A DNA stretch of 64,000 nt from IMG/VR virus record IMGVR_UViG_3300021962_000059; one strand, given 5' to 3'. This DNA comes from a virus. Shown here piece after piece: positions 4,434 to 64,000 of the stretch. The notes below the pieces were generated by a model. The model searched no databases, had not been told where the DNA came from, and was given only the letters and a program-made list of their open reading frames with translations. Position numbers and translations under genes: made by a program. Positions within the stretch are counted from its first letter, which is position 1, and every line of letters starts with the position of its first letter.

Positions 4434-4500
4434 TTATTTACTCCTGGTTTTTATTTTTTTTAAAGAGGGTAAGACTTTTTTATGCCTTTTGTTGTATCTC

Positions 4501-4761
4501 CTACTCAAAATCTGGCCAGCATCCAGATTTCTCCCATTTTCCATCTGATCGAACTGTCCAATTTTCTGTTAAATTTGAACAAAGATTTGTTTTGGGATTA
4601 TTGCCATTCTTTACACTTCCTTTCCATCTTTTAACAGTAGATAAACTAACTTCATAAAGCCTTGCAAATTCCTGATCGGTGAAAATTCTGCCAACAAAAA
4701 CTATTTTAGGAATAGTATAGTTTCGATACCATTTAGTATTTTCGTAATCACCTAAAAACAT
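4501..4761 (-). CDS. HTH paralog family (PF4) member
   Basis: 86 aa. FTDQEFARLYEVSLSTVKRWK ... NPKTNLCSNLTENWTVRSDGKWEKSG aligns with the ORFs at 4766..5071 and 5395..5814. Confidence 0.55.
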   Translation of the reverse strand: MFLGDYENTKWYRNYTIPKIVFVGRIFTDQEFARLYEVSLSTVKRWKGSVKNGNNPKTNLCSNLTENWTVRSDGKWEKSGCWPDFE

Positions 4762-18535: not shown

Positions 18536-18591
18536 AGTAAAAGGGGATGTATTTGGTTGGTAACAGAAATATAATACATAGTAAAAGGGGA
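18506..18591. repeat. 44-bp tandem duplication covering the RBS and start of 18128..18535
   Basis: TTGGTTG(TTA)G(C/T)AACAGAAATATAATACATAGTAAAAGGGGA occurs twice. The two ATGs (18535 and 18579) are 44 nt apart and therefore out of frame. Confidence 0.7.
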
Positions 18592-18644
18592 GTATAAAAC
18601 CATTCTAGTCTTTTTTCTTTACTAGATAAAATATTTAAAAAAAG

Positions 18645-35543: not shown

Positions 35544-35576
35544 TAAGTTTTTTGTAAGTTTTTTGTAAGTTTTTTG
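35544..35576 (+). repeat. Three perfect tandem copies of the 11-mer TAAGTTTTTTG (phased T6 tracts)
   Basis: Copies at 35544, 35555 and 35566, with degenerate copies at 35577 and 35587. They overlap the -35 (TTGTAA, 35563..68) of a putative + promoter with -10 TAAGAT (35587..92). The same 11-mer array recurs inverted at 42137..42170. Confidence 0.8.
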
Positions 35577-35619
35577 TAAGGTAGTGTAAGATAAGGGTAT
35601 CTTATCAAAATATGATTTT

Positions 35620-36667: not shown

Positions 36668-36958
36668 TTACTGATCACTTACTTCTGATAACTGACGACT
36701 TACTTCTGCTATCTGATAACTAAGAATTTGCATATCAAATGTCTTGCACTCTATCTCAATTAATAAAACTTTAATCGTTTCTAATGCACATCTTGCTTCT
36801 ACACAGTCTAAAGACGCTAATTTATCGAGCATCTGTTTATAGAGGATAGCTTTTTCCTTTTTATTGAAGCCACTAGCATCTTCTAACTCTAATAATCTTT
36901 CGATCATTTCTTGAAGCTGAGAAGAGGCTGGCTCATTTAAGATCAGTGGTTCTGTCAT
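36668..36958 (-). CDS. Hypothetical helical protein (PF5, paralog of 37014..37244)
   Basis: 96 aa. KKEKAILYKQMLDKLASL...ALETIKVLLIEIE compared with KKERLEFFNQMLEELLTI...ALNTIKALLSKLD. The 3' end is built from heptamer repeats (EVSRQLSEVSDQ). Confidence 0.5.
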   Translation of the reverse strand: MTEPLILNEPASSQLQEMIERLLELEDASGFNKKEKAILYKQMLDKLASLDCVEARCALETIKVLLIEIECKTFDMQILSYQIAEVSRQLSEVSDQ

Positions 36959-39908: not shown

Positions 39909-39971
39909 TGTTTTACTCCCTAATTGTGTTAATTCTTACTGATAACTAATAACTGATAACTAATCAGACTT

Positions 39972-40710: not shown

Positions 40711-40752
40711 CACTGACAACTGACAACTGACAACTGGCAACTGGCAACTAAC
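40711..40752. repeat. Heptanucleotide tandem array (TGACAAC x3, TGGCAAC x2), STRR-like
   Basis: It sits directly after the stop of 40755..41765. Related ACTRAYA arrays occur at 8050..8071, 12687..12710, 31419..31440, 36661..36720, 36987..37009, 37275..37296, 39658..39674 and 39937..39967. Confidence 0.8.
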
Positions 40753-42127: not shown

Positions 42128-42200
42128 GATTTTTAAGAAAAAAACTTACAAAAAACTTACAAAAAATAATAGTACAAAAGAACTAAGTTATTATTGTAAT

Positions 42201-45921: not shown

Positions 45922-45994
45922 TAGGTTGAGCAGGAATCGAACCTACCTAAGACGAATTATGAGTTCGTTGCCTTAACCGCTCGGCCATCAACCC
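45922..45994 (-). tRNA. tRNA with CAU anticodon (Met or Ile2)
   Basis: GGGTTGA-TG-GCCGAGCGGTTAAGGC-A-ACGAA-CTCATAA-TTCGT-CTTAG-GTAGG-TTCGATT-CCTGC-TCAACCT-A. It is a 73-nt cloverleaf with a G1-U72 pair; CCA is not encoded. Confidence 0.8.
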
Positions 45995-46466: not shown

Positions 46467-46481
46467 TATGTTTTATTTTAG

Positions 46482-46564
46482 TGGGTTGGGCTGGATTTGC
46501 ACCAGCGTGGAATTAAATCTACAGATTTACAGTCTGTCACCTTCGGCTACTCGGTCACCAACCC
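46482..46564 (-). tRNA. tRNA-Tyr (GUA), class II with a long variable arm
   Basis: GGGTTGG-TG-ACCGAGTAGCCGAAGGT-G-ACAGA-CTGTAAA-TCTGT-AGATTTAATTCCAC-GCTGG-TGCAAAT-CCAGC-CCAACCC-A (83 nt). Confidence 0.8.
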
Positions 46565-48874: not shown

Positions 48875-49162
48875 TTATTCTTTATAGTTGTTGATAGTTT
48901 CCCAGAAATGAATTTTTGTTGTTGATTTATTGTTTTTAAGTATTAGCTTTCGCCAGCAGTAAAAGCTTTCAAAAAAAATATCCCATCCATGAGGAACGTC
49001 AACAAAAATATTATCTAAAATGATAGGTAAATACCTTTCAACAAGATTGCGTATTGTCAAGATTAAAGAGCGTGGTTTTATTCCCATTTCTTTTAGTTCT
49101 GTTTTGGTCAGTTTCTTTTTTAAGAATTGATTGATCTTTTTATCTAGTTGTGTTTGATTCAT
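48875..49162 (-). CDS. PF3 member
   Basis: 95 aa. RYLPIILDNIFVDVPHGWDIFFESFYCWRKLILKNN. Confidence 0.55.
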   Translation of the reverse strand: MNQTQLDKKINQFLKKKLTKTELKEMGIKPRSLILTIRNLVERYLPIILDNIFVDVPHGWDIFFESFYCWRKLILKNNKSTTKIHFWETINNYKE

Positions 49163-49223
49163 TGTTTTTTGGAGTTACTATTTAGTTTAATCTTAATAGG
49201 GTTTAAGTTTAATTGTTTTTATT

Positions 49224-49254
49224 AAAAACCGTAAGGCTAAACCCTACGGTTTTT
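49224..49254. terminator. Intrinsic terminator (functional for the minus strand; bidirectional shape)
   Basis: AAAAA-CCGTAAGG-CTAAA-CCCTACGG-TTTTT, with one A.C mismatch in the stem. Confidence 0.6.
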
Positions 49255-49286
49255 AATCTGTCACTGTAAAGACTTAATAAATTGGT

Positions 49287-49799
49287 TTAACCGCCAATCC
49301 CCACGGGTTGAGGTACAGGCTGAGGTTTACTTAAGTCTCTAACTACCAGGGGATTTTCTACTAAATAAATAGCGTGTTTTAGTTTAGCCGATGCTAATTG
49401 TGCAGATTCTAAGCATCTGCGTTGAGTTTCTGTTAGTTCATTTTTGTTGATATGTGTAGTTAATTTGTCTCCATATCGAATTAATAACCGTTTAGTCTGT
49501 TGTTCTCTTTCCCGTAAATAATCGACTGCTGATTGTCCATAGAGTAATTCAATTCCGTAGTCACTTTGTTTGCAAACTACTTTCTCGTTACGCTCTTTTT
49601 GAAAATAGTTTTCTATCCAATTCATCCGATTATGTAGCTTAGGACCATAAGAAGCATTCGATGGACTGCATCCTACCCAGTGAGACTGCTGTAATACTTC
49701 AAAAGGAATGATTTGACCTCTTTGGATATTTTCTATGTCTTGAATTCTTTTTTGCCGATTTTGTTTTTTCAGTTCTGCAATTAGTTCGTTAGCGTCCAT
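49287..49799 (-). CDS. Hypothetical protein immediately downstream of the pentamer tract
   Basis: The start is taken at MDANELIAELKKQ (49799). The track's N-terminal extension (to 49856) is translated from the repeat tract. Confidence 0.5.
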   Translation of the reverse strand: MDANELIAELKKQNRQKRIQDIENIQRGQIIPFEVLQQSHWVGCSPSNASYGPKLHNRMNWIENYFQKERNEKVVCKQSDYGIELLYGQSAVDYLREREQQTKRLLIRYGDKLTTHINKNELTETQRRCLESAQLASAKLKHAIYLVENPLVVRDLSKPQPVPQPVGIGG

Positions 49800-49821
49800 T
49801 GTTTTCTCTTGATAATAAAGA

Positions 49822-50572
49822 ACCCCTACCCTAACCATGCCACAATACCCTACCAAGCCTTACCAAACCATACCATGCCTAACCAGACCTAACCTTACCA
49901 AGCCACAATACCTTACCCCGCTAAACCAAACCATGCCAAGCCTTAATACCCTGCCTGACCCCACCAAACCTTACCACACCAAACCTCACCGGACTTCACC
50001 TCACCACGCCAGACCGAACCTAACCTTACCCCACCTTACCGAACCTCGCCATACTCCACCACGCCGTACCATGCCTCAATACCCTACCTTACCTCACCCT
50101 ACCAAACCGAACCTCACCTGACCCCACCAAGCCTCGCCAAGCCCCACCAAACCTCAATACCCCACCTCACCTTACCCCGCTAAACCAAGCCATGCCAAAC
50201 CTTAATACCCTACCATGCCTTACCTGACCACACCGGACTCTACCACACCAGACCACACCGGACCTCACCACACCGGACCAAACCCTACCTCAATGCCCTA
50301 CCAAACCTCACCCCACCTTACCTCAATACCCTACCTTGCCCGACCTAACCTGACCTTACCCCACCGAACCTTACCAAACCAGACCCCACCTGACTTGACC
50401 TTGCATTACCCGACCTTACCTCACCTCGCCTAACCATACCTCAATACCCTGCCACACCTCACCCTACCTTACCTCACCATGCCAGACCAAACCACAATAC
50501 CCTACCATACCCGTCCTAACCTAACCTCACCTGACCTTAGCGTACCGTACCATGCCTTACCTCAATACCACA
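49822..50572. repeat. Strictly phased degenerate pentanucleotide tract, NN(A/G)CC on + / GGTNN on -, with 11 punctuation motifs
   Basis: I parsed the whole tract by hand into consecutive pentamers without a single indel. The punctuation YYAAT+ACC (consensus CAATACCCTRCC) starts at 49844, 49907, 49945, 50078, 50156, 50204, 50292, 50325, 50443, 50496 and 50564. All ten spacings have the form 8+5n. The + strand is strongly G-poor. Confidence 0.9.
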
Positions 50573-50576
50573 GATT

Positions 50577-50596
50577 AAGGGGCATTAAAGCCCCTT
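50577..50596. terminator. GC hairpin after the stop of 50603..51277
   Basis: AAGGGGC-ATTAAA-GCCCCTT. There is no clear U-run on the minus strand, so terminator function is uncertain. Confidence 0.35.
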
Positions 50597-50602
50597 GATT
50601 AA

Positions 50603-51277
50603 TTAAGCAGCTATATCATAGAAGCCAAGCATATTGAATTGTAGGACTTTAAACTTACCAAATTTAACACGAAAGTCACCAATCCCAATACGACGACCAG
50701 CATCGACAATGAAGTTTTTTACTGAGTCAACGTCGATCAATGAAGTATCAATCAAGAGAGACGCAGCACCGACATAACCGCTAGGGATTCTTACTCGGTT
50801 TCTCATGATTTTAGAAGTACCAATCCGAACGGATCGACAATCAACGAATCTGCCATAGGGGTCTTCCCACATTTCAGAAGCGTCTTTTGTACCTTCGTAA
50901 TCTAAGATTATTAACTCATCATCTACCTGAGTAACAGATTGACTAACTTGTTTGCCCATTTTAGAAGCTTTAGCGGCCTCTTGAATAGACCTGATTAAAT
51001 ACTCTGTAGGGACGGCGGGATTGCCGTATCCTTCAAAAACAAAGTCTTCCCCTTGTAAGTAGCATCGCCCTTCTGTTGCCCAAACACCAGAATTTAACCA
51101 ATCAGCTTTTTCCATCGAAGCTAATACATATTCAGTTTTAGCTTTTCCTCTTCGATTCTTAATTGGTTCAATTGTTTTATTTACTTGATTTTTGGGATTC
51201 ATACCAGCAGACGAATGCAAAAGCAGGTCTGTTGTTCCTTGTATCTGAACTTCGATAATTTTTAGATTGCTAGTCAT
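50603..51277 (-). CDS. Hypothetical protein immediately upstream of the pentamer tract
   Basis: 224-aa ORF downstream of the promoter at 51332..51361; no secure motif. Confidence 0.5.
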   Translation of the reverse strand: MTSNLKIIEVQIQGTTDLLLHSSAGMNPKNQVNKTIEPIKNRRGKAKTEYVLASMEKADWLNSGVWATEGRCYLQGEDFVFEGYGNPAVPTEYLIRSIQEAAKASKMGKQVSQSVTQVDDELIILDYEGTKDASEMWEDPYGRFVDCRSVRIGTSKIMRNRVRIPSGYVGAASLLIDTSLIDVDSVKNFIVDAGRRIGIGDFRVKFGKFKVLQFNMLGFYDIAA

Positions 51278-51331
51278 GTGGAAAATCTTCCTGAAATTGT
51301 AAGTATAGGTAACTTACGTTAACTATACTTA

Positions 51332-51361
51332 AATATACCATAAGCTTTATAGAAATGTCAA
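51332..51361 (-). promoter_or_regulatory. Sigma70-type promoter TTGACA-N18-TATATT
   Basis: It is part of a ~45-bp block duplicated at 52041..52084. Confidence 0.55.
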
Positions 51362-51419
51362 GTAAGAAGTCTAAAGATTTTGCTTTAACAGTCCTATCGC
51401 CACAGGGCTTCCCTGATAT

Positions 51420-51686
51420 TTAATCATCTCCCCAGTCTGGGTAGTATTGCAAATAGACAGCTTGTCGCTCGGTAGCCTGCTTTTCAAGTTTTTCAATTTT
51501 TTCATCGTCAAAACCATGCTCCCAAATTAGAGAATCAAGAAACTGGTCTTCTTTCTCTATAAACAATTCCTTCTTAACCATGAAATCTTGGCAACCATAA
51601 GACATCCCTCCGCTTTTCCCTATAAAAATAAGCGCATTGTCTTCAACGGTCGCCAAAAGCTCTTTTAATTGTTTTGCAGTAATCAT
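51420..51686 (-). CDS. Hypothetical protein
   Basis: The start is taken at MITAKQLKEL (51686), preceded by an AGGAGA SD. Confidence 0.5.
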   Translation of the reverse strand: MITAKQLKELLATVEDNALIFIGKSGGMSYGCQDFMVKKELFIEKEDQFLDSLIWEHGFDDEKIEKLEKQATERQAVYLQYYPDWGDD

Positions 51687-51708
51687 TTTGCGTCTCCTGA
51701 ATGAAAAA

Positions 51709-52023
51709 CTAATTCTTATCAATAAAAAGAGGAAACCCTATAGCTTCCCAGCATTCTAATAGTCTCGGTACGTCAACAGTCTGAACCGTATAATTTGATC
51801 CTGTATTAGCAATGAGAAATTTTTGAAAAATTTCTGGGGCGATATAAACGCTAAGGCTGGGAACATCGGCATGATTTGAAAACAAATTACCAGACTTTTC
51901 GGCTAATTCAGAGGTAATCCCAACTGAAATATCGGTTATCAGCAATTCTTGATAAACTGAATCGCTTTCATTAGGAAAAACCCATGCAATAAATCTAACA
52001 ATATAATCAGGTTTTGCATTCAT
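51709..52023 (-). CDS. Hypothetical protein
   Basis: 104-aa ORF, the first gene after the promoter at 52055..52084. Confidence 0.5.
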   Translation of the reverse strand: MNAKPDYIVRFIAWVFPNESDSVYQELLITDISVGITSELAEKSGNLFSNHADVPSLSVYIAPEIFQKFLIANTGSNYTVQTVDVPRLLECWEAIGFPLFIDKN

Positions 52024-52283: not shown

Positions 52284-53030
52284 TTATTCTCCGATTAATA
52301 GTTGACGGTTTCTAGCCTTAGAAAAAAGTTGCTTAACTTCCTTAAGGTTTTCGGTAGGGATGTAGGACGCTTGATTAACCCTTAACCCCTGACACACTAA
52401 ATGAGAGTGTCCATTTTTTTCTAGCCAACGCTCTAACTCTTTTCCAGACTTGAATCCTAGTTCTTTCCCTAACTCAGCAGTAGAGCGACCCTCAAAACTG
52501 ACATTCCGTCCGTTTTTACAGATAATTGTTTCAGTGACTTTTTCAACCTTCTCTATGACAATATCTGGACGGCCATCCAACAAGGCTAAAACCTCAGCAC
52601 CATGAATTAGTCGAATTGCGTCACGCCGATCCATGTAGTAGGTTTTAGCCTTTGTGAGTTCTAACTCAAGTTCTAATTCCCGAATACGCCCACTTTGAGC
52701 GGGGATTACTTCTTTGATGATTTGTTTTGCCTTTTCAAACCCATCAACCAGCTTTTCCTTGCAGTCTAAGACTTGTTCCGTATTACGAGAAAAAGTCATT
52801 AATAAGGTAGCTTGGTATTCGTTTAAGTAACAGTAAGAAACTTCATAAGTCCCTCCCTGTGGACGTTTCACCACGTCGATTTCAAATCGCACTGGTTCTT
52901 TTCGCTCTAAACGGTCAAGATGTTTCTTGATTGTCTTAAGTAAAGTTGCGTGTTCAATCCCCAACTCATCAGCAATCAAACGAGAATCGACGACAAGACA
53001 ATCATTCTGTGATACTATTTCAATAGCCAT
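52284..53030 (-). CDS. Rha-family phage regulatory protein (N-terminal) with an unknown C-terminal domain
   Basis: 248 aa. VVDSRLIADELGIEHATLLKTIKKHLDRLE resembles the Rha N-terminal motif (vsSr.iAe.fgk.H..vlr.I). It has an AGGAGG SD. Confidence 0.55.
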   Translation of the reverse strand: MAIEIVSQNDCLVVDSRLIADELGIEHATLLKTIKKHLDRLERKEPVRFEIDVVKRPQGGTYEVSYCYLNEYQATLLMTFSRNTEQVLDCKEKLVDGFEKAKQIIKEVIPAQSGRIRELELELELTKAKTYYMDRRDAIRLIHGAEVLALLDGRPDIVIEKVEKVTETIICKNGRNVSFEGRSTAELGKELGFKSGKELERWLEKNGHSHLVCQGLRVNQASYIPTENLKEVKQLFSKARNRQLLIGE

Positions 53031-53812: not shown

Positions 53813-54247
53813 CTAAGATTTTACCACTCCCGAAACAGGTACTCGATAAACCAGTACAGGTGGGTACTCATGGATATAGGTTTTAATCACGCCATTTATT
53901 GAGTCGGCGTGAATATATTCCCCGTCGCCCAAATAGATGCCCACATGACCATTTATGCCTGATTTGCGAAAGACTAAAACATCTCCCTTGTCTAGACTAC
54001 CTTCTACTCTTATCAGAATACTCTCAATAAATCTCACTAAGAAGTTGTTCCTAGGAATGCGTTCGTAGTTTTCGATGATGAAATCGTAGGGTAAGAATCC
54101 GACTTTAATCCCCACGCCAGCGATAAATCCTACGCAATCGGTTCCAATACCTTTGAGGGATTGACCATGAAACCAGGGAGTACCAAGCCACTCGATAGCC
54201 TCGGTAACAATTTGATTAGCTAAAGAATCGTTTTTTAGTTCGTTCAT
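53813..54247 (-). CDS. NlpC/P60 (C40) cell-wall peptidase, RcGTA g14 / lambda K-like
   Basis: 144 aa. LGTPWFHGQSLKGIGTDCVGFIAGV (catalytic Cys) and GHVGIYLGDGEYIHA (His). It overlaps the tape measure stop by 32 nt. Confidence 0.8.
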   Translation of the reverse strand: MNELKNDSLANQIVTEAIEWLGTPWFHGQSLKGIGTDCVGFIAGVGIKVGFLPYDFIIENYERIPRNNFLVRFIESILIRVEGSLDKGDVLVFRKSGINGHVGIYLGDGEYIHADSINGVIKTYIHEYPPVLVYRVPVSGVVKS

Positions 54248-57200
54248 TTTGTGCGTTTTCCCGTTCTTTCAATTGATTTAAACTATAACCCATATCATTT
54301 CGTGATTCTACAGTAACGTTGTTAGTGTTATTGATTACTAAAGATTGATTAGAACTATTGTTATTTGAGGTTGTGGAATAGTTAGGTTTACCTCCGACAA
54401 ATCCCCCGTTAGCATAATTTTTAATAGGAGCGTTATTTCTGTATTCTAGATAGGCTTCTGTCTCTTTAGGGTTAAGAACTAACTCATCTTCATTGGCTAC
54501 GATTAAGCGAGGTTTTCGACCGCCACTCATCGCTCGTTCGCGTTGGAAAGCTGAAATGATGTTTTTCTCTATCGGAGCGTTAGCTTTACCTACTTTTCCA
54601 CCATCACTAAAAAGGCTAAATCCTGTACCTAGAGAAAAGGCAGAAGCCGGAGTAGAAGCAAAACCAGATGGGGCTATACTACCAAGTAAACCAATCGAAC
54701 CAAGTCCGCCTAGTCCTCCACTAAAAACTCCTGTTATTCCGCTAAGTAGCCCATTAAATAAGCCACCGCCGCCACCTCCCCCAAAGATAGAAGAAAAGAT
54801 GTTACCTACTGGTTTAAAAATACTGTTTAGGGCATTAGCAAAGAAGTTACCTACTGGCCCGATGATTGCATTAAATACCGATTCAAATGCCTGAGTAATT
54901 GGTTTAGTGAATCCATCGATAGCAGAAGTTAAAGCATCGATAGCAGGCTTGGTAATACCCTCAACAAATTTTGTCATGATATTTAATCCAAGACTACTGA
55001 AAGCTGATCCTATTCCTTTTCCTTCTCTAATATCAGAGAAAAAGCTTTCAGCCGCGTTACGATTTGGAGATGTGTCTAATGCTACTCGCTCTAATCTTAA
55101 TTCTGCAAGTTTTTCCCATTCCGAGCGGATATTAGCTACATATTCAGCGTATTCTGGTAATCCTTCATAAACTTGAAGATAATCTTCTAGTTCTTCTTTT
55201 TCTTTTTGTAGGCTAATACGTTCGGCAAGGATAGCAGAATCGTCAAATAATCCAGAACCAGATTGAAATTCTAGTCGCATTCTTTGGATAGTTAAATCAT
55301 TTAACCGGTCGCGAATACTTCTGACTGTATCTCTGGTTCTTCTGAATGATGCTTCCAAGGTAGCCGCTCCCTGATTTCTACCTAATTGTTCAATTGCTTG
55401 ATCGAGGATCGCTACCTGTTCTTTAGCCAATTCAGCGTTTTTAGCTAAAACCTCAATACTATCTGTCATTTCTTTGACAAATTCAGGGGGAAGGGCTATA
55501 CCTTCTCTTTGGAATTCCCCTAAGATTTCTTTTATTGCGTCGCTGTATTTTTGTTGGGCATCGGCATTTAAAAGCAAAGTCCGTCGCTGGTCTTCTAGTG
55601 ATTCAATCTGAGAGCGATATTGTCGAGAGACTTCTGTGGCACTCTTATTAATTTCCTCTTGTACTGTCAGATACCCTTTAGAATTGATAGTCAAGTCAGC
55701 GACATTTTCAGAAGCATCTCTTAAGGTCCGTTCTAATGTACGGGCATCCTCTTCTTGTTGTCGTCTAAATCTGATTGATCTGTCAAGAGCATTGTTTAGA
55801 TTTTGTTGCTCTTCTAATCGTCTTAAAAACTCCTGACTGTTTCGTTCGGCTATTTCAGCATTGCGAATTTGATCAGCCGCCGTGCCAAGATTAGCCGTAG
55901 GGAGATTAGGAACGGGGGGTAAATTAGGATTCTGGAAGTTAATCGGATTATCTTTAAGAACTGGCGGTAAATCGGCATCCCAGAAATCATCTTGATTTTG
56001 ATTAGGTAAAGTCGGTAATTGGGCTATGGACGGGGGAGATGGTAGCTCTTGAGCTATAGATGGGGGACTGCTAAATTCTGGGCCACCTTGACCGCCGCGA
56101 CTTGTTTGTTTGCCGTCAAGATCGACAAACATTGAATTAGCCCCTGATTGAACTACCCAGTTAGCGATTTTTGCAATTTGATTGGGATCGGTAAAAACAA
56201 GGCATCCCGCACTGCCAAGCTGTAAATCGTCTAAATGGAATCCGATTTGTGATCTCCCAGTAGAGAACTTTGGTTCGGCTCCTATCCACGCAGGACCAAC
56301 AGTTCCTAGCGGAATTTGGCTAGGTTTATAATTTGCAAGCTGTCCAGAATTAAATTGTCGAAGATAACGAGATGCGTGGTTAGCGTCAACAGACCAATTG
56401 CCGTCAGGCAGTGGAGTTTCACTGCCACGAATATTGGTTCTATTAGTTCCAATTGCAGACTGCGTTGATGGTCTTCCTGTTACTCCTCCGATTACTGTAT
56501 CTACTACTTTTCCGTCTTTGATTAAATCAAATTGAAGTATCTCTAGTCCTTCTGGTGTTCTCTGTCCAGATTTTCTTACTAGGATATTTGATCCTTTTTG
56601 TAGATTTTGCGGTAATTGTAATGCACTGGGGACAACTGGACTTTGAGAAGGGACATTAGCGCCTTGACCGCCTTGATTCCTTCTGATTTGTTGAACACGG
56701 TTTAATGCCCCGCTATTAGCAGGATTGTCGTTATATTGCAGTGCTTCTAGTTCAGATTGAGTACGGGGAGCATTTGGTTGATATTTTCGTAAAGACTGTT
56801 CATAAACTTTTAACAGGTCTTCCATCCGTTTCATGCCTTGCCCTGGGTAATTAGCCCCTGGGAAAGATGCCCATTCTTTGCGGGTTGCGTTAATTGCCCC
56901 ACGAATATCCCCTTTAAGAAGCTCGTCTAAACCACCTCTCATTAAAATACGGCTTAAGGCTACTAAATCTTGAGAGACGGGAGAGAAGTCTTTTAACCCT
57001 AATTTTGATTTTTCTTCATCCCATGTAAAATCCATAATCTGGTATCTTCCAGATGCAGAGGAACTGGTTGATCCAAACGGGATTCTTTGACGTGGATGAT
57101 CCGCAAAAGAACTAAATTGTCCATGTCCAAAAAGGGTGTTATATCCCTTATTTGGCATATTAGCAGTACCTTCTGCATAAGCAATAGTATCAAGGAAAGC

Positions 57201-60200
57201 CTTAACATAAGGATTGTCTAAATGTTGAGATAATTCTTGTCCGCGGCGTGTTAACCCATTAGGAATTGAAGGTGACTGTAACGGTGGCGGCGGCAAAAAC
57301 CCTCCCCCATCCCAAACAGGAGCAGGGATAAAATTACCAGGAGCCGGTAATATTAAACCTTCCTTAGCTTTTCTGATTGCCTCGGCAGTTTCTTCTATAC
57401 TTTTTACCAAGTCTTCCCCAGAAGTCTTGATATTTGGGGGAATAGCTACTAACTCAGAATTGATTAATTTAATCGGTTCTGGGAGTGTATTGAGATTTGC
57501 GACAATATCCTTGATTGATTGGGGAATAAAGCCTAATTCTTTATTGGTTTGTCGGATTAAGTCAGCTAAGGTGCGATTAAGATTTTCTTGGGTTCGTTTA
57601 ATATCCTCAATCGTTCTTAGTCGGTTTCTTTCAGCTTCTTGCTGTTGCTCTTGTAGGTTGCGAATATTTCTTAAGGTAGAGATATAGGAAGTTTCTATCT
57701 CTTCGGTTCGGGACTGGAAAGTACGACCGCGACTAGCAAGGTCAGCTTGTCCCTGTACAAATTCTAGGAAAATGTCACCTAACTCTTTACCAGCGTCACT
57801 TGTACCGGGTATCAATAACCGGTTTTTGACTTGCTGTACCCTGATTCTATCGGTTGTATCCAGTAGCTGATTTTGGGTATTTAAAAGGTTCTTGTCGAGT
57901 TCCCTGACTAAATCACTGTAACTTTCAGATAGGGAACGATTCTCTTTAAATGCTGATAGTTGAGCGTCTTCGACTTGTCTTCTGTAGTCCTCAATCTGCC
58001 GGTTGAAGTCAACTATTTGACGGTCAAGGTTGCGGTAATAGTCTTGTAGCGAGGTTTGTTGCTGTAATAGGTTAGCGCGGGCTTGTTCTAGGGCTAATTC
58101 CGCTGCAACGATTTGTGATTTAATTTCTATTGGATTACCAGTGTTGTCTGCTAATTGCTGATAAAGTAATCCAATGGCTTGAATCCTTTCCTCTACATCT
58201 ATTTCAGCATTTCTTAAAGAAGCATTAACACCACCAAACGGATTAGCACGAATTACGTCAATACGTTTTCTTGCAATTTCAGAATCTACTCTTAATTTAG
58301 TTTCTGACTGATGCTTTCTTAGTCTATCTTGAGTAGCGTCATATTCAGACTTAGCAAGAGATAATCTAGCTGATGCTAGTTCTTTCTCCGCTTCAAATGT
58401 AGCTTTTCTCGTTTCCTCAATCGCATCTACCTGCTCTTGAGTTCGCCCTGATTCTGGAACGCTTAAATATTGTTCTAGGGTTTGCTGTTGTTTTGTTAGG
58501 TTTGCCTCAAATTGTTTAATTCGTTCTTTTTGAGTTTGAATTTCAATATTTCTGGTTTGTTCTCCAATTTGCACTGGATTTAAGTTAGAACGATAAACTG
58601 CTGTTTGATCATTTAAAGATTTATTTTCAATACGTCGCATTGTTTTTTCGTATTGAACTTCAAAATCTCTTATTGCATCAGTCGCTTTTTGCCATGCTGA
58701 TTCTAACGGAGTTAGTATGTCATAAAAACCAGCTTCTTCTAAAGATTTTCTGGTTTCTTCGACTATTTTTTGATTGCCTTCTACAATTGCCCTTAAAGCC
58801 TTTTTAGCTCCTTCTGGTAAATCCTGTTTATCAATCGCTTCGATACGACTGTTTAATCCTTTTCTTAATGACTCAAAATCAGTCATAAATTCGTCTAAAG
58901 GCTTAATCTTTTCTTTTCTAAGATCATTAAGTCTTTTAATTTCTTTGTCTATTTCTCTGATTCTAACTTTACTTTCAGATGTATTTGTTAACCCTGCGGT
59001 TGTTCTTTCTTTTTGCAGTCTTTGTATAGAAGCATCAATTATTTTAGCCTCATTAGCAAAGGGGTTAAGTAAGTTGATCGATTTACCTACAGTTTCAGGC
59101 ATTAACGACTGACCAGTTAATGCTTTTGATATTTCTTGATTAACTCTTTTTAGGTCTCTAGCACTATTTAAAAGCTGACTTTGCGCAAGTGTAAATTCAC
59201 CATAGTAGTCATTAAAATATTTTTCTAAGCCAGGTGATAATGCTCCTGCTTCTAATCTGGTAGCTTTAGCAATGCGATTTTTTTCTATGTCTTTTGGAGA
59301 AGGTGGCCGAAATCCAAATATTTCATTAGGTAGTCCCAGTGGACTACGCCCGTCTTTTATAGCATCATCACTTTTGTAACTAGAACTTTCGTCTCCTAGT
59401 ATAGCCATTAAGTTTAGTTCTAGCCCTTTTGAGGGAAGTTCATCTCCTCGCTTAACTTTTACTTCTAATGTAGGAGCTTCTAACTTATTTAATAATTTTT
59501 GAATATTGTTAATGCTTGCACCTATTTTTTGTTCTGATTCGTTTAAACTGGCCTGTAAAGGATTTGTAAAATCACTTCTAGCAAAAGCCATAAATCCTAG
59601 AGCAACAAAAGCCTTAAGAGCGATATTAAGAGCAACTAAAGCCCCTTTAGCCATGGCACTACTAGCGAATAAAGTATCAAATACTCCCCCTAAACTTTTA
59701 GCATTAGTAGCCGCTGTCCATATCGCCCCACTCATTCCTTTAAAAGTTAACCATAGTTTACTCAGTAAAGGTACTAAGAACATTTGCCCTAATACAATAA
59801 GCTGTTCAAACATAAAAGTTAAAGCAGTTAGCTCAAAAACACCGCTAGGAATAGATTTAAAAAGATTACCTAATGTATTTCCGATTGATTGTATTGGATT
59901 GACTGCTTTTTCCCAGTTGTAACCAAAAAAGCCTTTTCCTGATGCACCGTAAGAAATATTCTCTAAACTACCAATAGAAGCGGCGATTATGTTTGTAGTT
60001 CCTTTCGCCATGTTTGTAAACAGGTCGTTTTCAGTATTAAAAACGTCATCGATTACATCGGCTAAAATACCAGACATAAATGGGGTTAAAGTAATTAAGC
60101 CTGTTTTCCACGCGCCCATTATAAACCCTTGTATATTACTAACAACAGGTGCTATTTTAGGCATTGCTAAAATGGTTGACAGCCCAATGCCAACTTGCGC

Positions 60201-63200
60201 TACTACGCCAATCGTAAATGCTCCTGCGAGTTGTGAGATAATTCGGAAGTTATCACTAAAAGCCGTAACAATGCCCGATGCTAGATTGGTAATCCCAGCA
60301 AACATACCTCCAAAAATATCAGTAAAATTCCGATCTAATTTAAATAAAGCTGTCTCCATCGAAGCAAGCGCACTGGTAAAATCACTTGTACCTTTTTCTG
60401 CTGCAGACCCGAATTCTTGTTCTAGAATTTTTGTGACTTTTGGTAAAACTTCATCGGATAAAAGCGAGCCTTTTGCCACTAATTGACCCAGTTCTGCTTG
60501 GCTAACCCCTAGTGCTTTAGCAAACACTGACATAGTTGGTGGAAATTTCTCGCCCAGCTGCTGCCTGAGCTCTTCCATTGAGACCTTATTTTTTGCAACC
60601 AGCTGGGTATAGGCGTTGAGAACTAAACTAGCATCAAAGGTATTTAATCGCAAGGCTTTAATTGACGCTGTGATAGCAGAAAAAAGCTCTTTAGTTGCTT
60701 CACCTTCTAGTTTTGTTCCCTTTGTTGCTACTGCTAATTGAGTATACCCTTCTGACAAAGACTGCAAGGAAACTCGATATTTTTCTGCTAATCCTAACAG
60801 ATACTTGTATTCAGCGTCAGATTTAAGCGGATCGCCTGTAACAGCGTTCAATCTAGCATTAAAGTTTTCTACTCCCTGTATTCTCTGACTAGCTCCCTGA
60901 AAAGCAGGTGATACCATGTTAATCCCACCAGATACAGCTAAAGCCGTCGGTAGTAATGGCAAGGCTAAAGGGGCTAAAGATGCTAATGCTGGCAATAAAG
61001 GATTAGACATTGCAGTCATGCCAAAAAGCATACCAAAACCTTCTCTTGCCACGGTTTCTCTTTCGCTAGGGTCTTTGCTAATTTTCCGCTTAATGCTATT
61101 ACTCATATTCCGGAAAAACTTATCAAAGTAAGATTCAGTACCAAAATCTGCATATTTTTGAGCTAAGGTTTCTATTTTTGCATCAGCGAAAGTAGAACGA
61201 CGGACTCGATTTAATGCCCTTAAAGGTCGGTTTAAAAATCCTTGTAAAGATGTTTCTTCTTGTCTTTCTTGTTTTAATCTTGCCAATTCAGCGCGTTCTC
61301 GGGCTTCTTTCTCTCTGGCAGCGCGTCTGTCAAGAATAATTTTTCTTCTGGCTTCTATATTAGCCATTGCTTTAGGGTCTGGCGCGCCTAATCTACGAAG
61401 CCCTTCTATTTCTTCTTGTACCCTTTTTTCTGTTTCTTGTTGTCGTTTTTTCTCTTGTTCTTTAATAGATTTCCATTCTTGAGGCGATTTAATTCTTTGA
61501 TTCTTTTGAGCTTTGTTAGTTTCTTGTTGGATAAAGACATCCCTAGCAGATTCTAATTTGTTCAACAGTTCAATGGTTCTGTTGCTATTAGCTCCAAATT
61601 GTCTAATAGCAATTTGAACAGCTTTTTGCAATTTGTTTAGATAGTCTTGATTAATCTCTTTAGTAGCGAAAGAAGGTGAAGATATGCGGTTAAGCCCATC
61701 AACTTCCCTTTGAATTAACTGGTTAGTATTATCTCTACGTTGACCAATAGACTGTCTTAACTCACTAATCCTAGATTGTCTTCCCCAATTGTTACTACGA
61801 TTAATACCAATTGTTTTTTGAGTCTTTAGCCAATCCTGAAACTCTTTAGCTCGTTTCTGTTCGTATCTGTCTCTTATCGCTTGACGTTTTCTTTCTAGTT
61901 CAGCTAATCTTTCAGGGGATTGAGACAAAGCTAATCTGTTTAACCCATCAACTTCCCTTTGAATTAATTGATTAGTATTGTCCCTGCGTTGACTAATAGA
62001 CTGTCTTAGTTCGCTAATACGAGACTGTCTATTCCAATTAGTGTTACGATTAATACCAATTGTTTTTTGAGTTTTTAACCAATCTTGGAACTCTTTAGCT
62101 CTTTTCTGCTCGTATTTATCTTTTATAGCTTGACGCTTAGCCTCAATATCGCCTAGTCTCTCAGGAGATTGAGCGATAGATAAAGACGATGCCAATCTGT
62201 TTAAATCAGTAATCTCTTTCTGTACACTTCTTTCTGTTTCTTGTTTTAATTTAGCTTCTTGCTCTCTTTTTCTTTTAATGGATTCTGCTTGTTGGTTTAT
62301 TTCTTGCTTAGTTTTAGGAATGCGGTTAACTTTACTAGCTTCCTGCTTAGCTACAATTCCTCTGGCAGATTCTAATTTATTTAGCAATTGAATAGTTCTA
62401 TCGCTATTAACTCCGAATTGTCTGATAGCAATTTGAACAGCTTTTTGTAATTTATTTAAATAATCGTCGGTTATATCTCTACTAGCAAAAGGTGAAGATA
62501 TGCGGTTAAGCCCATCAACTTCTTTTTGTATTAACTGGTTGGTATTATCTCTACGTTGACTAATAGACTGTCTTAACTCACTAATCCTAGATTGTCTTCC
62601 CCAATTGGTACTACGGTTGATACCGACATTCTGAGTCTTTAACCAATCTTGAAACTCTTTAGCTCTTCTCTGCTCGTATTTATCTTTTATTGCTTGACGT
62701 TTAGCCTCAATATCAGCTAATCTTTCAGGGGATTGAGACAAAGCTAATCTGTTTAATCCATCAACTTCCCTTTGAATTAATTGATTAGTATTGTCCCTGC
62801 GTTGACTAATAGACTGTCTTAGTTCGCTAATACGAGACTGTCTATTCCAATTAGTGTTACGATTAATACCAATTGTTTTTTGAGTCTTTAGCCAGTCTTG
62901 AAACTCCTTAGCTCGTTTCTGTTCGTATTTATCTTTTATTGCTTGACGTTTAGCCTCAATATTAGCTAATCTTTCAGGAGATTGGGCGATAGATAAAGAC
63001 GATGCTAATTTGTTTAAATCAGCAATCTCTTCTTGGACTTTTTTCTCTGCTTTTTGTTGCTGGTTTCTTTCTTGTTCTTTTCTTTTTTTAGTTAATTCAG
63101 CTTGCTCATTTATTTCTTGTTTGGTCTTAGGAACGCGATTAGCTTTATCAGTTTCTTGCTTAACTGCAATCTTTTTAGCAGATTCTAATCTATCTAATAA

Positions 63201-64000
63201 CTGAATAGCTTTGTTGCTGTTAGCTCCAAATTGTCTGATAGCAATTTGAACAGCTTTTTGTAATTTATTTAAATAATCTTCAGTTATATCTTTACCACCA
63301 AAAGGTTGAGATATGCGGTTAAGCCCATCAACTTCTCTTTGAATTAATTGGTTAGTATTATCTCTACGTTGACTAATAGATTGTCTTAGTTCGCTAATAC
63401 GAGACTGTCTATCCCAATTGGTACTACGATTAATACCGACATTCTGAGTCTTTAGCCAGTCTTGAAACTCCTTAGCTCGTTTCTGTTCGTATTTATCTTT
63501 TATAGCTTGACGTTTTCTTTCTAATTCAGCTAATCTTTCAGGGGATTGAGACAAAGCTAATCTGTTTAATCCATCAACTTCCCTTTGAATTAATTGATTA
63601 GTATTGTCCCTGCGTTGACTAATAGACTGTCTTAACTCACTAATACGAGACTGTCTTCCCCAATTGGTGTTACGATTAATACCAATTGTTTTTTGAGTTT
63701 TTAACCAATCTTGGAACTCTTTAGCTCTTTTCTGCTCGTATTTATCTTTTATAGCTTGACGTTTTCTTTCTAATTCAGCTAATCTTTCAGGAGATTGAGA
63801 AGCAGATAGAGATGTAGCTAATTTATTTAACCCATCAACTTCTCTTTGTACTAACTGATTAGTATTATCTCTACGTTGACTAATAGACTGTCTTAACTCA
63901 CTAATACGAGACTGTCTTCCCCAATTGGTGTTACGATTAATACCAATTGTTTTTTGAGTTTTTAACCAATCTTGGAACTCTTTAGCTCTTTTCTGCTCGT
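54216..64000 (-). CDS. Tail tape measure protein (5' partial, more than 3260 codons) with embedded peptidoglycan-acting domains
   Basis: The reading frame stays open from 63554 to the window edge; I checked the codons and the repeat sequence continues. The body is a long coiled-coil/hydrophobic region with a Gly-rich C-terminal segment (GGGGGGLFNGLL...). A lambda-lysozyme/GH104-like motif is present (AFLDTIAYAEGT...HP...SSASGRYQIMDFTWD). An H-x8-SAGC motif is also present (IGFHLDDLQLGSAGCLVF). Confidence 0.85.
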   Translation of the reverse strand, partial: EQKRAKEFQDWLKTQKTIGINRNTNWGRQSRISELRQSISQRRDNTNQLVQREVDGLNKLATSLSASQSPERLAELERKRQAIKDKYEQKRAKEFQDWLKTQKTIGINRNTNWGRQSRISELRQSISQRRDNTNQLIQREVDGLNRLALSQSPERLAELERKRQAIKDKYEQKRAKEFQDWLKTQNVGINRSTNWDRQSRISELRQSISQRRDNTNQLIQREVDGLNRISQPFGGKDITEDYLNKLQKAVQIAIRQFGANSNKAIQLLDRLESAKKIAVKQETDKANRVPKTKQEINEQAELTKKRKEQERNQQQKAEKKVQEEIADLNKLASSLSIAQSPERLANIEAKRQAIKDKYEQKRAKEFQDWLKTQKTIGINRNTNWNRQSRISELRQSISQRRDNTNQLIQREVDGLNRLALSQSPERLADIEAKRQAIKDKYEQRRAKEFQDWLKTQNVGINRSTNWGRQSRISELRQSISQRRDNTNQLIQKEVDGLNRISSPFASRDITDDYLNKLQKAVQIAIRQFGVNSDRTIQLLNKLESARGIVAKQEASKVNRIPKTKQEINQQAESIKRKREQEAKLKQETERSVQKEITDLNRLASSLSIAQSPERLGDIEAKRQAIKDKYEQKRAKEFQDWLKTQKTIGINRNTNWNRQSRISELRQSISQRRDNTNQLIQREVDGLNRLALSQSPERLAELERKRQAIRDRYEQKRAKEFQDWLKTQKTIGINRSNNWGRQSRISELRQSIGQRRDNTNQLIQREVDGLNRISSPSFATKEINQDYLNKLQKAVQIAIRQFGANSNRTIELLNKLESARDVFIQQETNKAQKNQRIKSPQEWKSIKEQEKKRQQETEKRVQEEIEGLRRLGAPDPKAMANIEARRKIILDRRAAREKEARERAELARLKQERQEETSLQGFLNRPLRALNRVRRSTFADAKIETLAQKYADFGTESYFDKFFRNMSNSIKRKISKDPSERETVAREGFGMLFGMTAMSNPLLPALASLAPLALPLLPTALAVSGGINMVSPAFQGASQRIQGVENFNARLNAVTGDPLKSDAEYKYLLGLAEKYRVSLQSLSEGYTQLAVATKGTKLEGEATKELFSAITASIKALRLNTFDASLVLNAYTQLVAKNKVSMEELRQQLGEKFPPTMSVFAKALGVSQAELGQLVAKGSLLSDEVLPKVTKILEQEFGSAAEKGTSDFTSALASMETALFKLDRNFTDIFGGMFAGITNLASGIVTAFSDNFRIISQLAGAFTIGVVAQVGIGLSTILAMPKIAPVVSNIQGFIMGAWKTGLITLTPFMSGILADVIDDVFNTENDLFTNMAKGTTNIIAASIGSLENISYGASGKGFFGYNWEKAVNPIQSIGNTLGNLFKSIPSGVFELTALTFMFEQLIVLGQMFLVPLLSKLWLTFKGMSGAIWTAATNAKSLGGVFDTLFASSAMAKGALVALNIALKAFVALGFMAFARSDFTNPLQASLNESEQKIGASINNIQKLLNKLEAPTLEVKVKRGDELPSKGLELNLMAILGDESSSYKSDDAIKDGRSPLGLPNEIFGFRPPSPKDIEKNRIAKATRLEAGALSPGLEKYFNDYYGEFTLAQSQLLNSARDLKRVNQEISKALTGQSLMPETVGKSINLLNPFANEAKIIDASIQRLQKERTTAGLTNTSESKVRIREIDKEIKRLNDLRKEKIKPLDEFMTDFESLRKGLNSRIEAIDKQDLPEGAKKALRAIVEGNQKIVEETRKSLEEAGFYDILTPLESAWQKATDAIRDFEVQYEKTMRRIENKSLNDQTAVYRSNLNPVQIGEQTRNIEIQTQKERIKQFEANLTKQQQTLEQYLSVPESGRTQEQVDAIEETRKATFEAEKELASARLSLAKSEYDATQDRLRKHQSETKLRVDSEIARKRIDVIRANPFGGVNASLRNAEIDVEERIQAIGLLYQQLADNTGNPIEIKSQIVAAELALEQARANLLQQQTSLQDYYRNLDRQIVDFNRQIEDYRRQVEDAQLSAFKENRSLSESYSDLVRELDKNLLNTQNQLLDTTDRIRVQQVKNRLLIPGTSDAGKELGDIFLEFVQGQADLASRGRTFQSRTEEIETSYISTLRNIRNLQEQQQEAERNRLRTIEDIKRTQENLNRTLADLIRQTNKELGFIPQSIKDIVANLNTLPEPIKLINSELVAIPPNIKTSGEDLVKSIEETAEAIRKAKEGLILPAPGNFIPAPVWDGGGFLPPPPLQSPSIPNGLTRRGQELSQHLDNPYVKAFLDTIAYAEGTANMPNKGYNTLFGHGQFSSFADHPRQRIPFGSTSSSASGRYQIMDFTWDEEKSKLGLKDFSPVSQDLVALSRILMRGGLDELLKGDIRGAINATRKEWASFPGANYPGQGMKRMEDLLKVYEQSLRKYQPNAPRTQSELEALQYNDNPANSGALNRVQQIRRNQGGQGANVPSQSPVVPSALQLPQNLQKGSNILVRKSGQRTPEGLEILQFDLIKDGKVVDTVIGGVTGRPSTQSAIGTNRTNIRGSETPLPDGNWSVDANHASRYLRQFNSGQLANYKPSQIPLGTVGPAWIGAEPKFSTGRSQIGFHLDDLQLGSAGCLVFTDPNQIAKIANWVVQSGANSMFVDLDGKQTSRGGQGGPEFSSPPSIAQELPSPPSIAQLPTLPNQNQDDFWDADLPPVLKDNPINFQNPNLPPVPNLPTANLGTAADQIRNAEIAERNSQEFLRRLEEQQNLNNALDRSIRFRRQQEEDARTLERTLRDASENVADLTINSKGYLTVQEEINKSATEVSRQYRSQIESLEDQRRTLLLNADAQQKYSDAIKEILGEFQREGIALPPEFVKEMTDSIEVLAKNAELAKEQVAILDQAIEQLGRNQGAATLEASFRRTRDTVRSIRDRLNDLTIQRMRLEFQSGSGLFDDSAILAERISLQKEKEELEDYLQVYEGLPEYAEYVANIRSEWEKLAELRLERVALDTSPNRNAAESFFSDIREGKGIGSAFSSLGLNIMTKFVEGITKPAIDALTSAIDGFTKPITQAFESVFNAIIGPVGNFFANALNSIFKPVGNIFSSIFGGGGGGGLFNGLLSGITGVFSGGLGGLGSIGLLGSIAPSGFASTPASAFSLGTGFSLFSDGGKVGKANAPIEKNIISAFQRERAMSGGRKPRLIVANEDELVLNPKETEAYLEYRNNAPIKNYANGGFVGGKPNYSTTSNNNSSNQSLVINNTNNVTVESRNDMGYSLNQLKERENAQNERTKKRFFS
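56130..56560 (-). other. Possible L,D-transpeptidase-fold (YkuD/Tlde1-like) domain inside the tape measure (approximate bounds)
   Basis: GRSQIGFHLDDLQLGSAGCLVFTDP resembles the His...Gly-Cys active-site arrangement of this fold. Weak call. Confidence 0.35.
56930..57230 (-). other. GH104 / lambda-lysozyme-like lytic transglycosylase domain inside the tape measure (approximate bounds)
   Basis: DNPYVKAFLDTIAYAEGTANMPNKGYNTLFGHGQFSSFADHPRQRIPFGSTSSSASGRYQIMDFTWDE. Confidence 0.6.
61550..64000 (-). repeat. Nested tandem repeats in the 5' part of the tape measure gene
   Basis: An ~85-aa module A (SQSPERLxxxExKRQAIKDKYEQKRAKEFQDWLKTQ..GINR.TNW.RQSRISELRQSISQRRDNTNQLIQREVDGLNR) occurs at least 7 times in the window. 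It alternates with a ~110-aa module B (..DYLNKLQKAVQIAIRQFG.NS...IQLL..LESA...). The DNA copies are near-identical. Confidence 0.9.

Follow-up and report, generated by a model that had tools for sequence, protein, structure and literature searches.

VIPR (Viral Interference Programmable Repeat) systems are phage-borne relatives of CRISPR that carry out RNA-guided DNA binding and were described in two preprints posted on 27 April 2026 (10.64898/2026.04.26.720920, 10.64898/2026.04.26.720927). Their loci, mostly found on phages, comprise two genes, one for a minimal RAMP-family protein (Vipr) and one for an accessory protein (vap), and their guide RNAs, the vrRNAs, are tandem YNNGG/GGYNN repeats in which GGY is conserved and NN is hypervariable (10.64898/2026.04.26.720920). 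In the cryo-electron microscopy structure from SUSP1, one Vipr protomer occupies each repeat of a right-handed filament on the RNA, with G1, G2, and Y3 flipped out and held by H17, D177, W178, R138, and R179 (10.64898/2026.04.26.720927). N4 and N5 pair with double-stranded DNA (dsDNA) and one target base is skipped per repeat, mostly the codon wobble base in natural targets; binding represses transcription, and in nature it is aimed at competitors, namely phages, satellites, and prophages (10.64898/2026.04.26.720920). There are seven VIPR types, with tailed, "staggered," hammerhead-interspersed, and single architectures, and the system is proposed to predate CRISPR (10.64898/2026.04.26.720920). 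Here, we analyzed a tract of phased pentamers at positions 49822-50569, minus strand, of a 64,000-nucleotide stretch of viral DNA (IMG/VR record IMGVR_UViG_3300021962_000059; the whole stretch is referred to below as the window). We consider it very probable that this tract is the vrRNA guide array of a VIPR system, carried on an accessory cassette of a Fukuivirus-like Microcystis phage. The tract is not a new kind of element, its kind having already been described with a name and a mechanism, and the remark in the initial annotation of the window that no described element has this organization is out of date since the two preprints appeared. Neither the word "cyanobacteria" nor the word "Microcystis" occurs in the VIPR preprint or its supplement (10.64898/2026.04.26.720920).

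The locus fits VIPR because the protein encoded beside the tract is homologous to Vipr, is predicted to have a RAMP fold, and conserves the residues that contact GGY, and because vipr and array are linked. The vipr gene (gene A; 50603-51277, minus strand) encodes 224 amino acids, and homology together with an AlphaFold2 (AF2) model predicts a minimal RAMP that polymerizes on GGY repeats; a minimal RAMP of the Vipr kind is characterized by an RRM core, a glycine-rich loop, and a thumb. A phmmer search of the PDB returned a sole significant match, 36pp_D, the "SUSP1 Vipr protein" (E value, 7e-10; residues 5-211 versus 1-187), and a profile built from 20 array-adjacent homologs (profile A1) likewise matched one PDB structure, 36pp chain D (E value, 2e-28). 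The window Vipr also matches phrog_4652. In the alignment of these 20 homologs the mean identity is only ~23%, and the most conserved stretch of the family is AGxxxGIGDxRPxxGxYGRF, a glycine-rich loop of the RAMP type, which reads GIGDFRVKFGKF in the window protein. The AF2 model, computed with 77 homologs in the input, reached a predicted local distance difference test score (pLDDT) of 88.1 and a predicted template modeling score (pTM) of 0.83. When it was compared by Foldseek with a PDB set older than entry 36pp, the top matches, at least 30 of them, were Csm3/Cas7 RAMPs of type III, VII, and IV CRISPR complexes, including type III-A Csm3, type VII Cas7, and type IV Csf2 (E values, ~1e-4 to 1e-3). 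The SUSP1 residues H17, R138, D177, W178, R179, and E71 align to H21, R161, D201, F202, R203, and E92 of the window protein, the exchange of W178 for F202 keeping an aromatic side chain. This single Vipr is the only RAMP in the locus; Vipr has no match in Pfam or NCBIfam, where Cas hits were likewise absent, and the PADLOC defense models recognized neither Vipr nor the product of the accessory gene discussed below. The initial annotation had suggested that a ring-forming or helical protein binds a constant triplet with a 2-nt spacer, and of this suggestion the helical option holds, with one protomer per 5-nt repeat, the protein being the RAMP encoded at 50603-51277 and not a TRAP-like ring.

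The array begins 33 nt past the vipr stop codon, on the vipr strand, and is composed of 11 punctuation units, each followed by a run of GGYNN repeats. Parsed anew as plus-strand units NN(A/G)CC, it resolved on the minus strand into 132 GGYNN pentamers and eleven 8-nt units with no indel and no register slip, in agreement with the strict phasing first described; the tract itself was correctly recognized, except that it ends at 50569 rather than 50572, the extra 3 nt being "aca." Across the 132 pentamers, compared with a minimum of four for a VIPR tract beside vipr, G1 is conserved in 125 (95%), G2 in 131 (99%), and Y3 in 129 (98%; T in 104, C in 25), and N4 and N5 are free, with 14 of the 16 possible dinucleotides occurring at NN. 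The punctuation unit reads GGYATTRN on the minus strand and YYAATRCC on the plus strand (n = 11), and all eleven sites were recovered at the positions given initially. In the minus orientation, the successive punctuation units are followed by 12, 9, 22, 5, 16, 8, 14, 25, 6, 11, and 4 pentamers. The earlier counts between punctuations (11, 6, 25, 14, 8, 16, 5, 22, 9, and 12 in the plus orientation) were exact, and the four remaining units follow the last punctuation, outside those ten spacings.

This pattern lies far beyond chance, because the 10-unit motif RCC(NNRCC)9 has 17 matches, all within the tract, and none in 100 dinucleotide-preserving shuffles; because self-identity at lag 5 is 0.58 in the tract, compared with 0.26-0.31 for the flanking DNA and at most 0.39 for any further 200-nt window of the 64 kb; and because the tract differs from its surroundings in composition, with a GC content of 0.48-0.575 versus ~0.27-0.43 in the flanks and a GC skew of -0.63 to -0.76. 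The sharp period of 5 and the GC-richer, G-poor plus strand that had been anticipated are thereby borne out. Each of the six frames has stops, 18-21 in every GGY-strand frame and 3-9 in every ACC-strand frame, so the GG-bearing minus strand is noncoding here, as originally stated, with vipr lying on the same strand. The RNA of the array and its junctions is predicted to be unstructured (folding z score, +1.0). A search of the array against Rfam at E values of up to 1 gave two sub-threshold chance matches only, with no family and no hammerhead, and no CRISPR-like repeat array was detected within the window.

The same organization recurs in other viruses, where it is likewise associated with Vipr. 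A blind scan of IMG/VR for ACC(NNACC)6 found at least 120 stretches; 32 loci, counting this window, carry tracts of at least 150 nt among the matches listed, the scope that applies to the following counts as well. A Vipr homolog adjoins the tract in 24 of these 32 loci, lies on the GGY strand in 23 of the 24, and is mostly located directly upstream of the tract. The longer tracts share one anatomy, in which NNACC runs are split by a constant element specific to each locus, for instance AACTGCC in L099 and CCCATTAGCC in L011, or elements of 24 nt and 27 nt in L021 and L106, respectively. L027 has 4-nt units (...ACC followed by TGCC). In L133, the gene order is vipr, homolog of the accessory gene, array, and the punctuation is GGGATTNN; the units of this array (1983-2614) are more degenerate, and in the assembly a run of N falls inside the array, so that arrays of this kind may pose difficulties for assembly. 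In phage VpaE1, which has a Vipr with 97% identity to that of SUSP1, there are runs of 5-11 GGYNN units that are mostly followed by a conserved ~40-nt tail, GGGTAGTTAATCGGAGCTAC..., in agreement with the published description. In Gordonia phage Trine (L135), 12 GGCNN units at 3128-3187 lie within the annotated 5' part of gene 40, next to the Vipr homolog gp41, and are followed by GG...GGTTCGACTCC, which resembles a tRNA T-arm; the coding sequence of gene 40 may therefore be annotated with an over-extended start, and Trine may carry a vrRNA with a tRNA-like tail. A tblastn search of GenBank phages yielded no Microcystis phage among the matches listed (10 of 11 organism groups).

Ten guides can be delimited between the punctuation units, all on the minus strand: guide 1 (50502-50561, 12 repeats), guide 2 (50449-50493, 9 repeats), guide 3 (50331-50440, 22 repeats), guide 4 (50298-50322, 5 repeats), guide 5 (50210-50289, 16 repeats), guide 6 (50162-50201, 8 repeats), guide 7 (50084-50153, 14 repeats), guide 8 (49951-50075, 25 repeats, the longest), guide 9 (49913-49942, 6 repeats), and guide 10 (49850-49904, 11 repeats). 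The array closes with GGCAT GGTTA GGGTA GGGGT (49822-49841, minus strand), four units that are probably not a guide. In three related loci, L127, L129, and L130, Vipr shares 96, 94, and 91% identity, respectively, with its window counterpart, and the punctuation is the same but the guides are mostly different; L127 comes from an 80.7-kb ENA contig in which the array is internal, and L130 holds only 3 guides plus the closing unit. The closing units recur at the end of the L127 array and, with GGCTT for GGCAT, of the L130 array, the comparison covering these two array ends. Guide 7 is the same as guide 7 of L127, and its first 11 units are also found in guide 7 of L129. The NN string of guide 6 equals that of L127 guide 6 and the start of L129 guide 8, and guide 9 is a short copy of it, repeating its first six NN; all these copies of guide 6 differ at Y positions only. 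Guides 5 and 8 are chimeric, sharing 8 and 6 units, respectively, with guides of the relatives: the 3' half of guide 5 is common to L127 guide 5, and the first 6 units of guide 8 are common to L129 guide 6. Over 30 junctions, the consensus GGY-AG, GGTATTGA, GGY-WT is conserved at 30/30 sites; a guide hence ends on an invariant NN and opens on a biased one. Public gene calls, protein P0125 among them, are affected by the arrays: a spurious 125-aa open reading frame (ORF) has been placed opposite the array strand in L127 (4691-5068, minus strand), and the annotated accessory genes of L127 (5410-5961) and L130 (2987-3556) reach into the array by 13-19 codons at their start, which lengthens the product from 170 aa to 183-189 aa.

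The composition of the variable dinucleotides points in the same direction. For 241 interior NN units from 23 distinct guides, compared with a codon model taken from the phage's own long ORFs, the best fit was to codon positions 1-2 in the sense orientation (-934 bits), ahead of genome dinucleotides (-948), a uniform model (-964), and codon positions 2-3 and 3-1, the alternatives together spanning -948 to -986 bits. Such a codon-1-2-like composition appears to agree, albeit indirectly, with the published wobble-skip rule. What had been taken initially for 2-nt spacers is better described as the information-bearing part of the element, a noncontiguous guide for DNA recognition.

The second gene of the locus, gene B (49287-49799, minus strand; 170 aa), is a candidate vipr-accessory gene (vap). 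Its family is rare, an exhaustive search of 1.84 billion representative proteins finding nine members with E values of up to 0.001. A homolog lies directly 3' of the 47%-identical vipr in L133 (BLASTP E value, 4e-16). The AF2 model of gene B (pLDDT, 87.5) shows a helix, a short strand, a helix, a beta-hairpin, and long helices, in this order. Among viral folds it is matched best by proteins from two phages, one of 267 aa from Gordonia phage Trine (E value, 1.9e-5) and one of 146 aa from Escherichia phage adrianh (E value, 7.5e-4). These sizes are also those of the gene next after vipr, whose product has 267 aa in Trine (gp40) and, in VpaE1 of the SUSP1 clade (ORF086), 146 aa, and Vipr homologs are present in both the Trine and the SUSP1-clade phage groups. 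In the SUSP1 clade, vap1 has been placed at this vipr-adjacent position (10.64898/2026.04.26.720920). From synteny and predicted fold, we infer that gene B is a vap1-like accessory gene. Comparison of the model with PDB folds gave nothing significant, the best weak matches being ScpB winged-helix domains (E values, 0.18-4), and these ScpB-like matches suggest a possible DNA-binding role for the modeled protein.

Gene B has no detectable sequence relation to the vipr-adjacent genes of ~160 aa in L027, L031, L060, L099, and L116. The ~160-aa accessory protein that stands beside vipr and array in these five loci carries the motif LHxxFEWxD..AGEKYR. The last ~50 residues of gene B (...ELTETQRRxLESxQLxxAKLxHAxYLVxxPLVVRDLSKxQP) recur in P0127-P0130 and P0134, proteins of 160-294 aa that are otherwise unlike gene B and are 65-78% identical in the shared C-terminal part. 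The recurrence suggests, at the sequence level, that these ~50 residues may form a mobile module.

Both genes and the array belong to a discrete cassette. The window is related to the Fukuivirus Microcystis phages MaMV-CH01, -DL01, -DL02, and -DH01 (~89% identity over matched parts, blastn). In the comparison with MaMV-CH01 (L001), window positions 48962-49167 correspond to 4001-4206 and positions 51409-51724 to 4254-4567, so that the 2,241 bp at 49168-51408 stand in place of ~47 bp of intergenic DNA between homologs of genes 184L and 185L. Because the flanks align across these ~47 bp, the whole 2.24-kb cassette (49168-51408, minus strand) is missing from MaMV-CH01; the inserted DNA had no blastn match among 50,697 phage records. 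Along the minus strand, the cassette consists of a promoter-like site, vipr, a GC hairpin, the array, the vap-like gene B, and a terminator-like hairpin. The site upstream of vipr (51332-51361, minus strand), TTGACA-18 nt-TG-TATATT, is a putative sigma-70-like promoter identified by consensus match only; it fits the consensus at 11/12 positions and is the only such site in 49100-51500. The GC hairpin noted initially between vipr and the array (50577-50596, minus strand) is real (-13.3 kcal/mol; z score, -3.5), has no U-run behind it, and is conserved in L127-L130; we infer a role in processing, stability, or attenuation. At the end of the cassette, a hairpin with a U-run (49229-49254, minus strand) resembles an intrinsic terminator (-19.9 kcal/mol; z score, -6.3), and 0/200 shuffles fold as well.

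The surroundings of the cassette vary as well. A 248-aa Phage_pRha (antirepressor-type) gene lies near the cassette in L127 (2971-3717) and L128, and the window has a 248-aa ORF at 52284-53030 (minus strand) on the corresponding side. The small genes between the 248-aa gene and vipr vary among phages, giving the region a mosaic appearance.

Considering these data together with the mechanism published for the SUSP1 and Pseudomonas fulva systems (10.64898/2026.04.26.720920, 10.64898/2026.04.26.720927), we propose the following model for the cassette. The cassette would be transcribed from its own promoter, with the array transcribed along with or after vipr. The array RNA would then be cut, or otherwise delimited, at the GGY-AG, GGUAUUGA, GGY-WU junctions into ~10 vrRNAs, along each of which Vipr would polymerize with one protomer per 5-nt repeat, sequestering G1, G2, and Y3 and presenting N4 and N5. 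The presented dinucleotides would pair with dsDNA as NNxNNx..., one base being skipped per repeat, and the resulting filament would silence the target at the level of transcription, with the accessory protein enhancing repression; the target is most likely a rival phage, a satellite, or another mobile element. Our conjecture for the 8-nt unit is that its break in the 5-nt register, together with the flanking AG and WU units, terminates one filament and lets another begin, and that the unit thereby takes the place of the ~40-nt structured 3' tail of type II vrRNAs.

Several observations weigh against assigning the locus to VIPR. The structured 3' tail that defines type II is absent, only GGYATTRN standing between the guides. 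Since architecture varies between types, the missing tail excludes the type II architecture and not membership in VIPR. Nine of the 132 units deviate from GGY (e.g., AGTCC, TGCAA, and GCTAA), and guides of 5-6 repeats may be too short for specificity, so that part of the array could have decayed. SUSP1 K33, which contacts the target DNA backbone, aligns to E37 in a weakly aligned stretch. The profile-sequence comparison of gene B with vap1 is collinear but not significant (hhalign E values, 0.019 and 0.42).

The target searches can be listed beside these points. The rule was applied with each GGY read as one wildcard base (1-nt skip), on both strands, with shuffled-guide controls; the published criterion for natural targets is a 1-nt-skip match at 80% or more of NN positions (10.64898/2026.04.26.720920). 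With mismatches tolerated, no target above control was found in the complete MaMV-CH01 genome with skips of 0, 1, 2, and 3 nt, in ~1.3 Mb of fetched loci searched with the guides of the window and of L127, L129, and L130, or in two further phages of Microcystis, Mic1 and Me-ZS1. Guides 1, 3, 5, 6, 7, and 8 also supplied exact seeds of 10-11 units, a kind of query that misses imperfect targets; these gave 0 matches in seven scans of IMG/VR, one chance match in JGI metagenomes (26/50 over the full guide), and two chance matches of 23/28 in GTDB genomes, one lying within a sensor kinase with a CHASE domain and the other being out of frame. In favor of VIPR, no self-target was found within the window, the best matches, at 56-81% of NN positions, equaling those of shuffled-guide controls; other VIPR loci likewise lack self-targeting (10.64898/2026.04.26.720920).

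A more specific possibility, which we put forward only tentatively and regard as rather unlikely, is that the locus represents a distinct, tail-less VIPR, with the 3-nt register break GGUAUUGA, set between a fixed ...AG unit and a WU unit, as the sole guide delimiter along a single transcript and with filaments that are either phased by RNA register or cut by a further activity. Under such an arrangement, 25-repeat guides would lead to footprints of ~75 bp, and, as no searched phage matched, the targets might be host (Microcystis) genes or uncharacterized satellites. If true, cyanophages would have in it a means to silence genes of the host or of parasites while a bloom lasts.

The assignment to a functional VIPR system can be set against four other explanations of the same tract. 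The one that survives best, though we regard it as improbable, is that the locus is a decaying or inactive VIPR remnant, a true homolog that no longer functions, a reading to which the degenerate units, the guides of only 5-6 repeats, and the lack of targets would lend themselves. Against decay, the vipr and vap-like ORFs are intact, key residues are conserved, the near-consensus promoter-like site and the terminator-like hairpin have been kept, and four related phages retain long arrays with junctions conserved at 30/30 sites.

It is slightly less probable still that the tract is a titrating or regulatory RNA in the manner of TRAP or a CsrA sponge, which would regulate 49287-49799 or sequester a host factor, with NN as mere spacers. 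TRAP sites in the trp leader are triplets with short spacers, and the constant triplet plus 2-nt spacer seen here reproduces that geometry; the array also sits where the 5' untranslated region of 49287-49799 would be. The adjacent protein, however, is a Vipr/RAMP homolog and not TRAP-like, the NN composition is codon-like, and functionless spacers would not be swapped guide by guide while GGY, punctuation, and terminal units stay fixed. In addition, the order vipr, vap, array in L133 means that the array is no leader of the accessory gene there. A TRAP-regulated leader as such was rejected on similar grounds, the triplet being GGY and the neighboring proteins showing no TRAP or trp similarity.

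It is very improbable that the tract acts purely at the DNA level, be it by forming a G-quadruplex or i-motif, as a repeat used in packaging or at a terminus, or as a hotspot of recombination. The GG every 5 nt on one strand, the strong GC skew, and the raised local GC would be in keeping with it, but the tract is internal in the 80-kb contig of a relative and travels with vipr on the GG strand (the 24/32 and 23/24 loci given above), and the constraint on Y3, the hypervariable NN, and the conserved junctions would go unexplained. The G-quadruplex, packaging or terminus repeat, and decoy readings offered initially found no support.

The weakest reading, a plus-strand coding repeat in which three pentamers would yield the five residues xPxxT, has in its favor the plus-strand ORFs of 94 and 72 aa and the 125-aa plus-strand ORFs called in related contigs, and it is hardly credible, given 3-9 stops in each plus frame and no frame open across the L127 or L129 arrays, a frame shift at the 8-nt punctuation 11 times, replacement of whole guides rather than codon-wise substitution among relatives, and the same architecture elsewhere with unrelated separators of many lengths. 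A collagen-like coding repeat was rejected for the same stops in every frame. Type III toxin-antitoxin systems, the template of a diversity-generating retroelement (DGR), telomere-like (TTAGG)n, and short tandemly repeated repetitive (STRR) sequences were dropped as candidates once the Vipr homology had been found, and PADLOC gave no match.

What is new in this locus is the cyanophage setting, the compactness of an array with punctuation, guide lengths that range from 5 to 25 repeats, and the four related arrays that document turnover. With it, VIPR reaches phages whose host is a bloom-forming cyanobacterium, and independent, well-delimited natural examples of this kind help to define what is essential to the system. 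The 8-nt delimiter, the shortest found in our analysis, is relevant to vrRNA production and to the control of filament length, and the turnover, duplication, and chimeras seen in the four related arrays provide material on the origin of new guides. In practical terms, the 2.24-kb cassette is easy to clone because it brings promoter-like and terminator-like sites of its own, and annotators should be aware that public gene callers put spurious ORFs on arrays and begin the accessory gene too early.

The remainder of the window carries phage genes and two tRNAs. The tRNA genes lie on the minus strand at 45922-45994 and 46481-46564 and comprise tRNA-Met(CAT) and tRNA-Tyr(GTA). A single ORF of 3,112 aa (54216-63554, minus strand) contains two pairs of 249-bp (83-aa) tandem repeats with 81-83% identity, at 61690-62173 and 62512-62984, and presumably encodes a structural or fiber protein with repeat domains. 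Tandem heptamer or 21-mer repeats based on ACTGATA/ACTGACA occur at 36670-36721, 39938-39964, and 40712-40749 and resemble the short tandem repeats of cyanobacteria. Other repeats have a unit of 11 nt (35544-35580 and 42139-42166) or of 44 bp (18512-18595; 1.9 copies, 92% identity).

Among known systems, the TRAP/trp leader of Bacillus subtilis resembles the locus in that triplets spaced 2-3 nt apart are each held by one subunit of a protein oligomer. TRAP, however, is an 11-mer ring unrelated to RAMPs, binds (G/U)AG, and has spacers that carry no information. The type III toxin-antitoxin system ToxIN also places a tandem-repeat RNA beside the gene of its binding protein, with a hairpin between them, but the repeats of ToxI are identical 36-nt units processed by the toxin itself, whereas here the units are 5 nt long with free NN and the protein is a RAMP. 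A further comparison is with class 1 CRISPR-Cas systems. Their Cas7/Csm3 filaments share with VIPR the RAMP fold, the glycine-rich loop, the thumb, one protomer per fixed number of nucleotides, periodically flipped bases, variable guides with a constant separator, and guide turnover among close relatives. The period differs, being 5 nt with three bases sequestered in VIPR and 6 nt with one base flipped in class 1 CRISPR, and unlike the latter, the present system has a noncontiguous guide, no repeat hairpin, no Cas6, Cas1, Cas2, or other cas genes, and no known acquisition machinery, and is encoded by a virus. Class 1 CRISPR-Cas was therefore rejected as an identification, the window holding no identical repeats of ~24-48 nt and giving no Cas hits in Pfam or NCBIfam.

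Within VIPR, the closest described layout is found in the "staggered" arrays, whose vrRNAs overlap by 1 nt, the hammerhead-interspersed arrays, and the single-vrRNA loci (figs S18-S20; 10.64898/2026.04.26.720920), in which successive vrRNAs are contiguous and a long tail is lacking. The +3-nt punctuation GGUAUUGA may or may not correspond to the 1-nt overlap; the array of L027 looks more like a 1-nt stagger. Type II VIPR (SUSP1 and a Pseudomonas fulva prophage; PDB 36pp) is the second point of comparison. Its vrRNAs have 9-16 repeats, each with a conserved, pseudoknotted ~40-nt tail, and lie on both sides of the genes, whereas here the space between vipr and the accessory gene holds the full set of 10-11 abutting guides, which have 5-25 repeats and are separated by 8-nt units. 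The separator is flanked by a last NN fixed as AG and a first NN biased toward WT, the host is cyanobacterial, and the window Vipr is only ~25% identical to type II Vipr. Both, nevertheless, are phage-encoded two-gene systems in which a homologous RAMP-fold Vipr with the same GGY-contact residues is paired with an accessory protein of vap1-like fold and with GGYNN repeats on the vipr strand, and in both the guides spare the phage's own genome and vary between close relatives.

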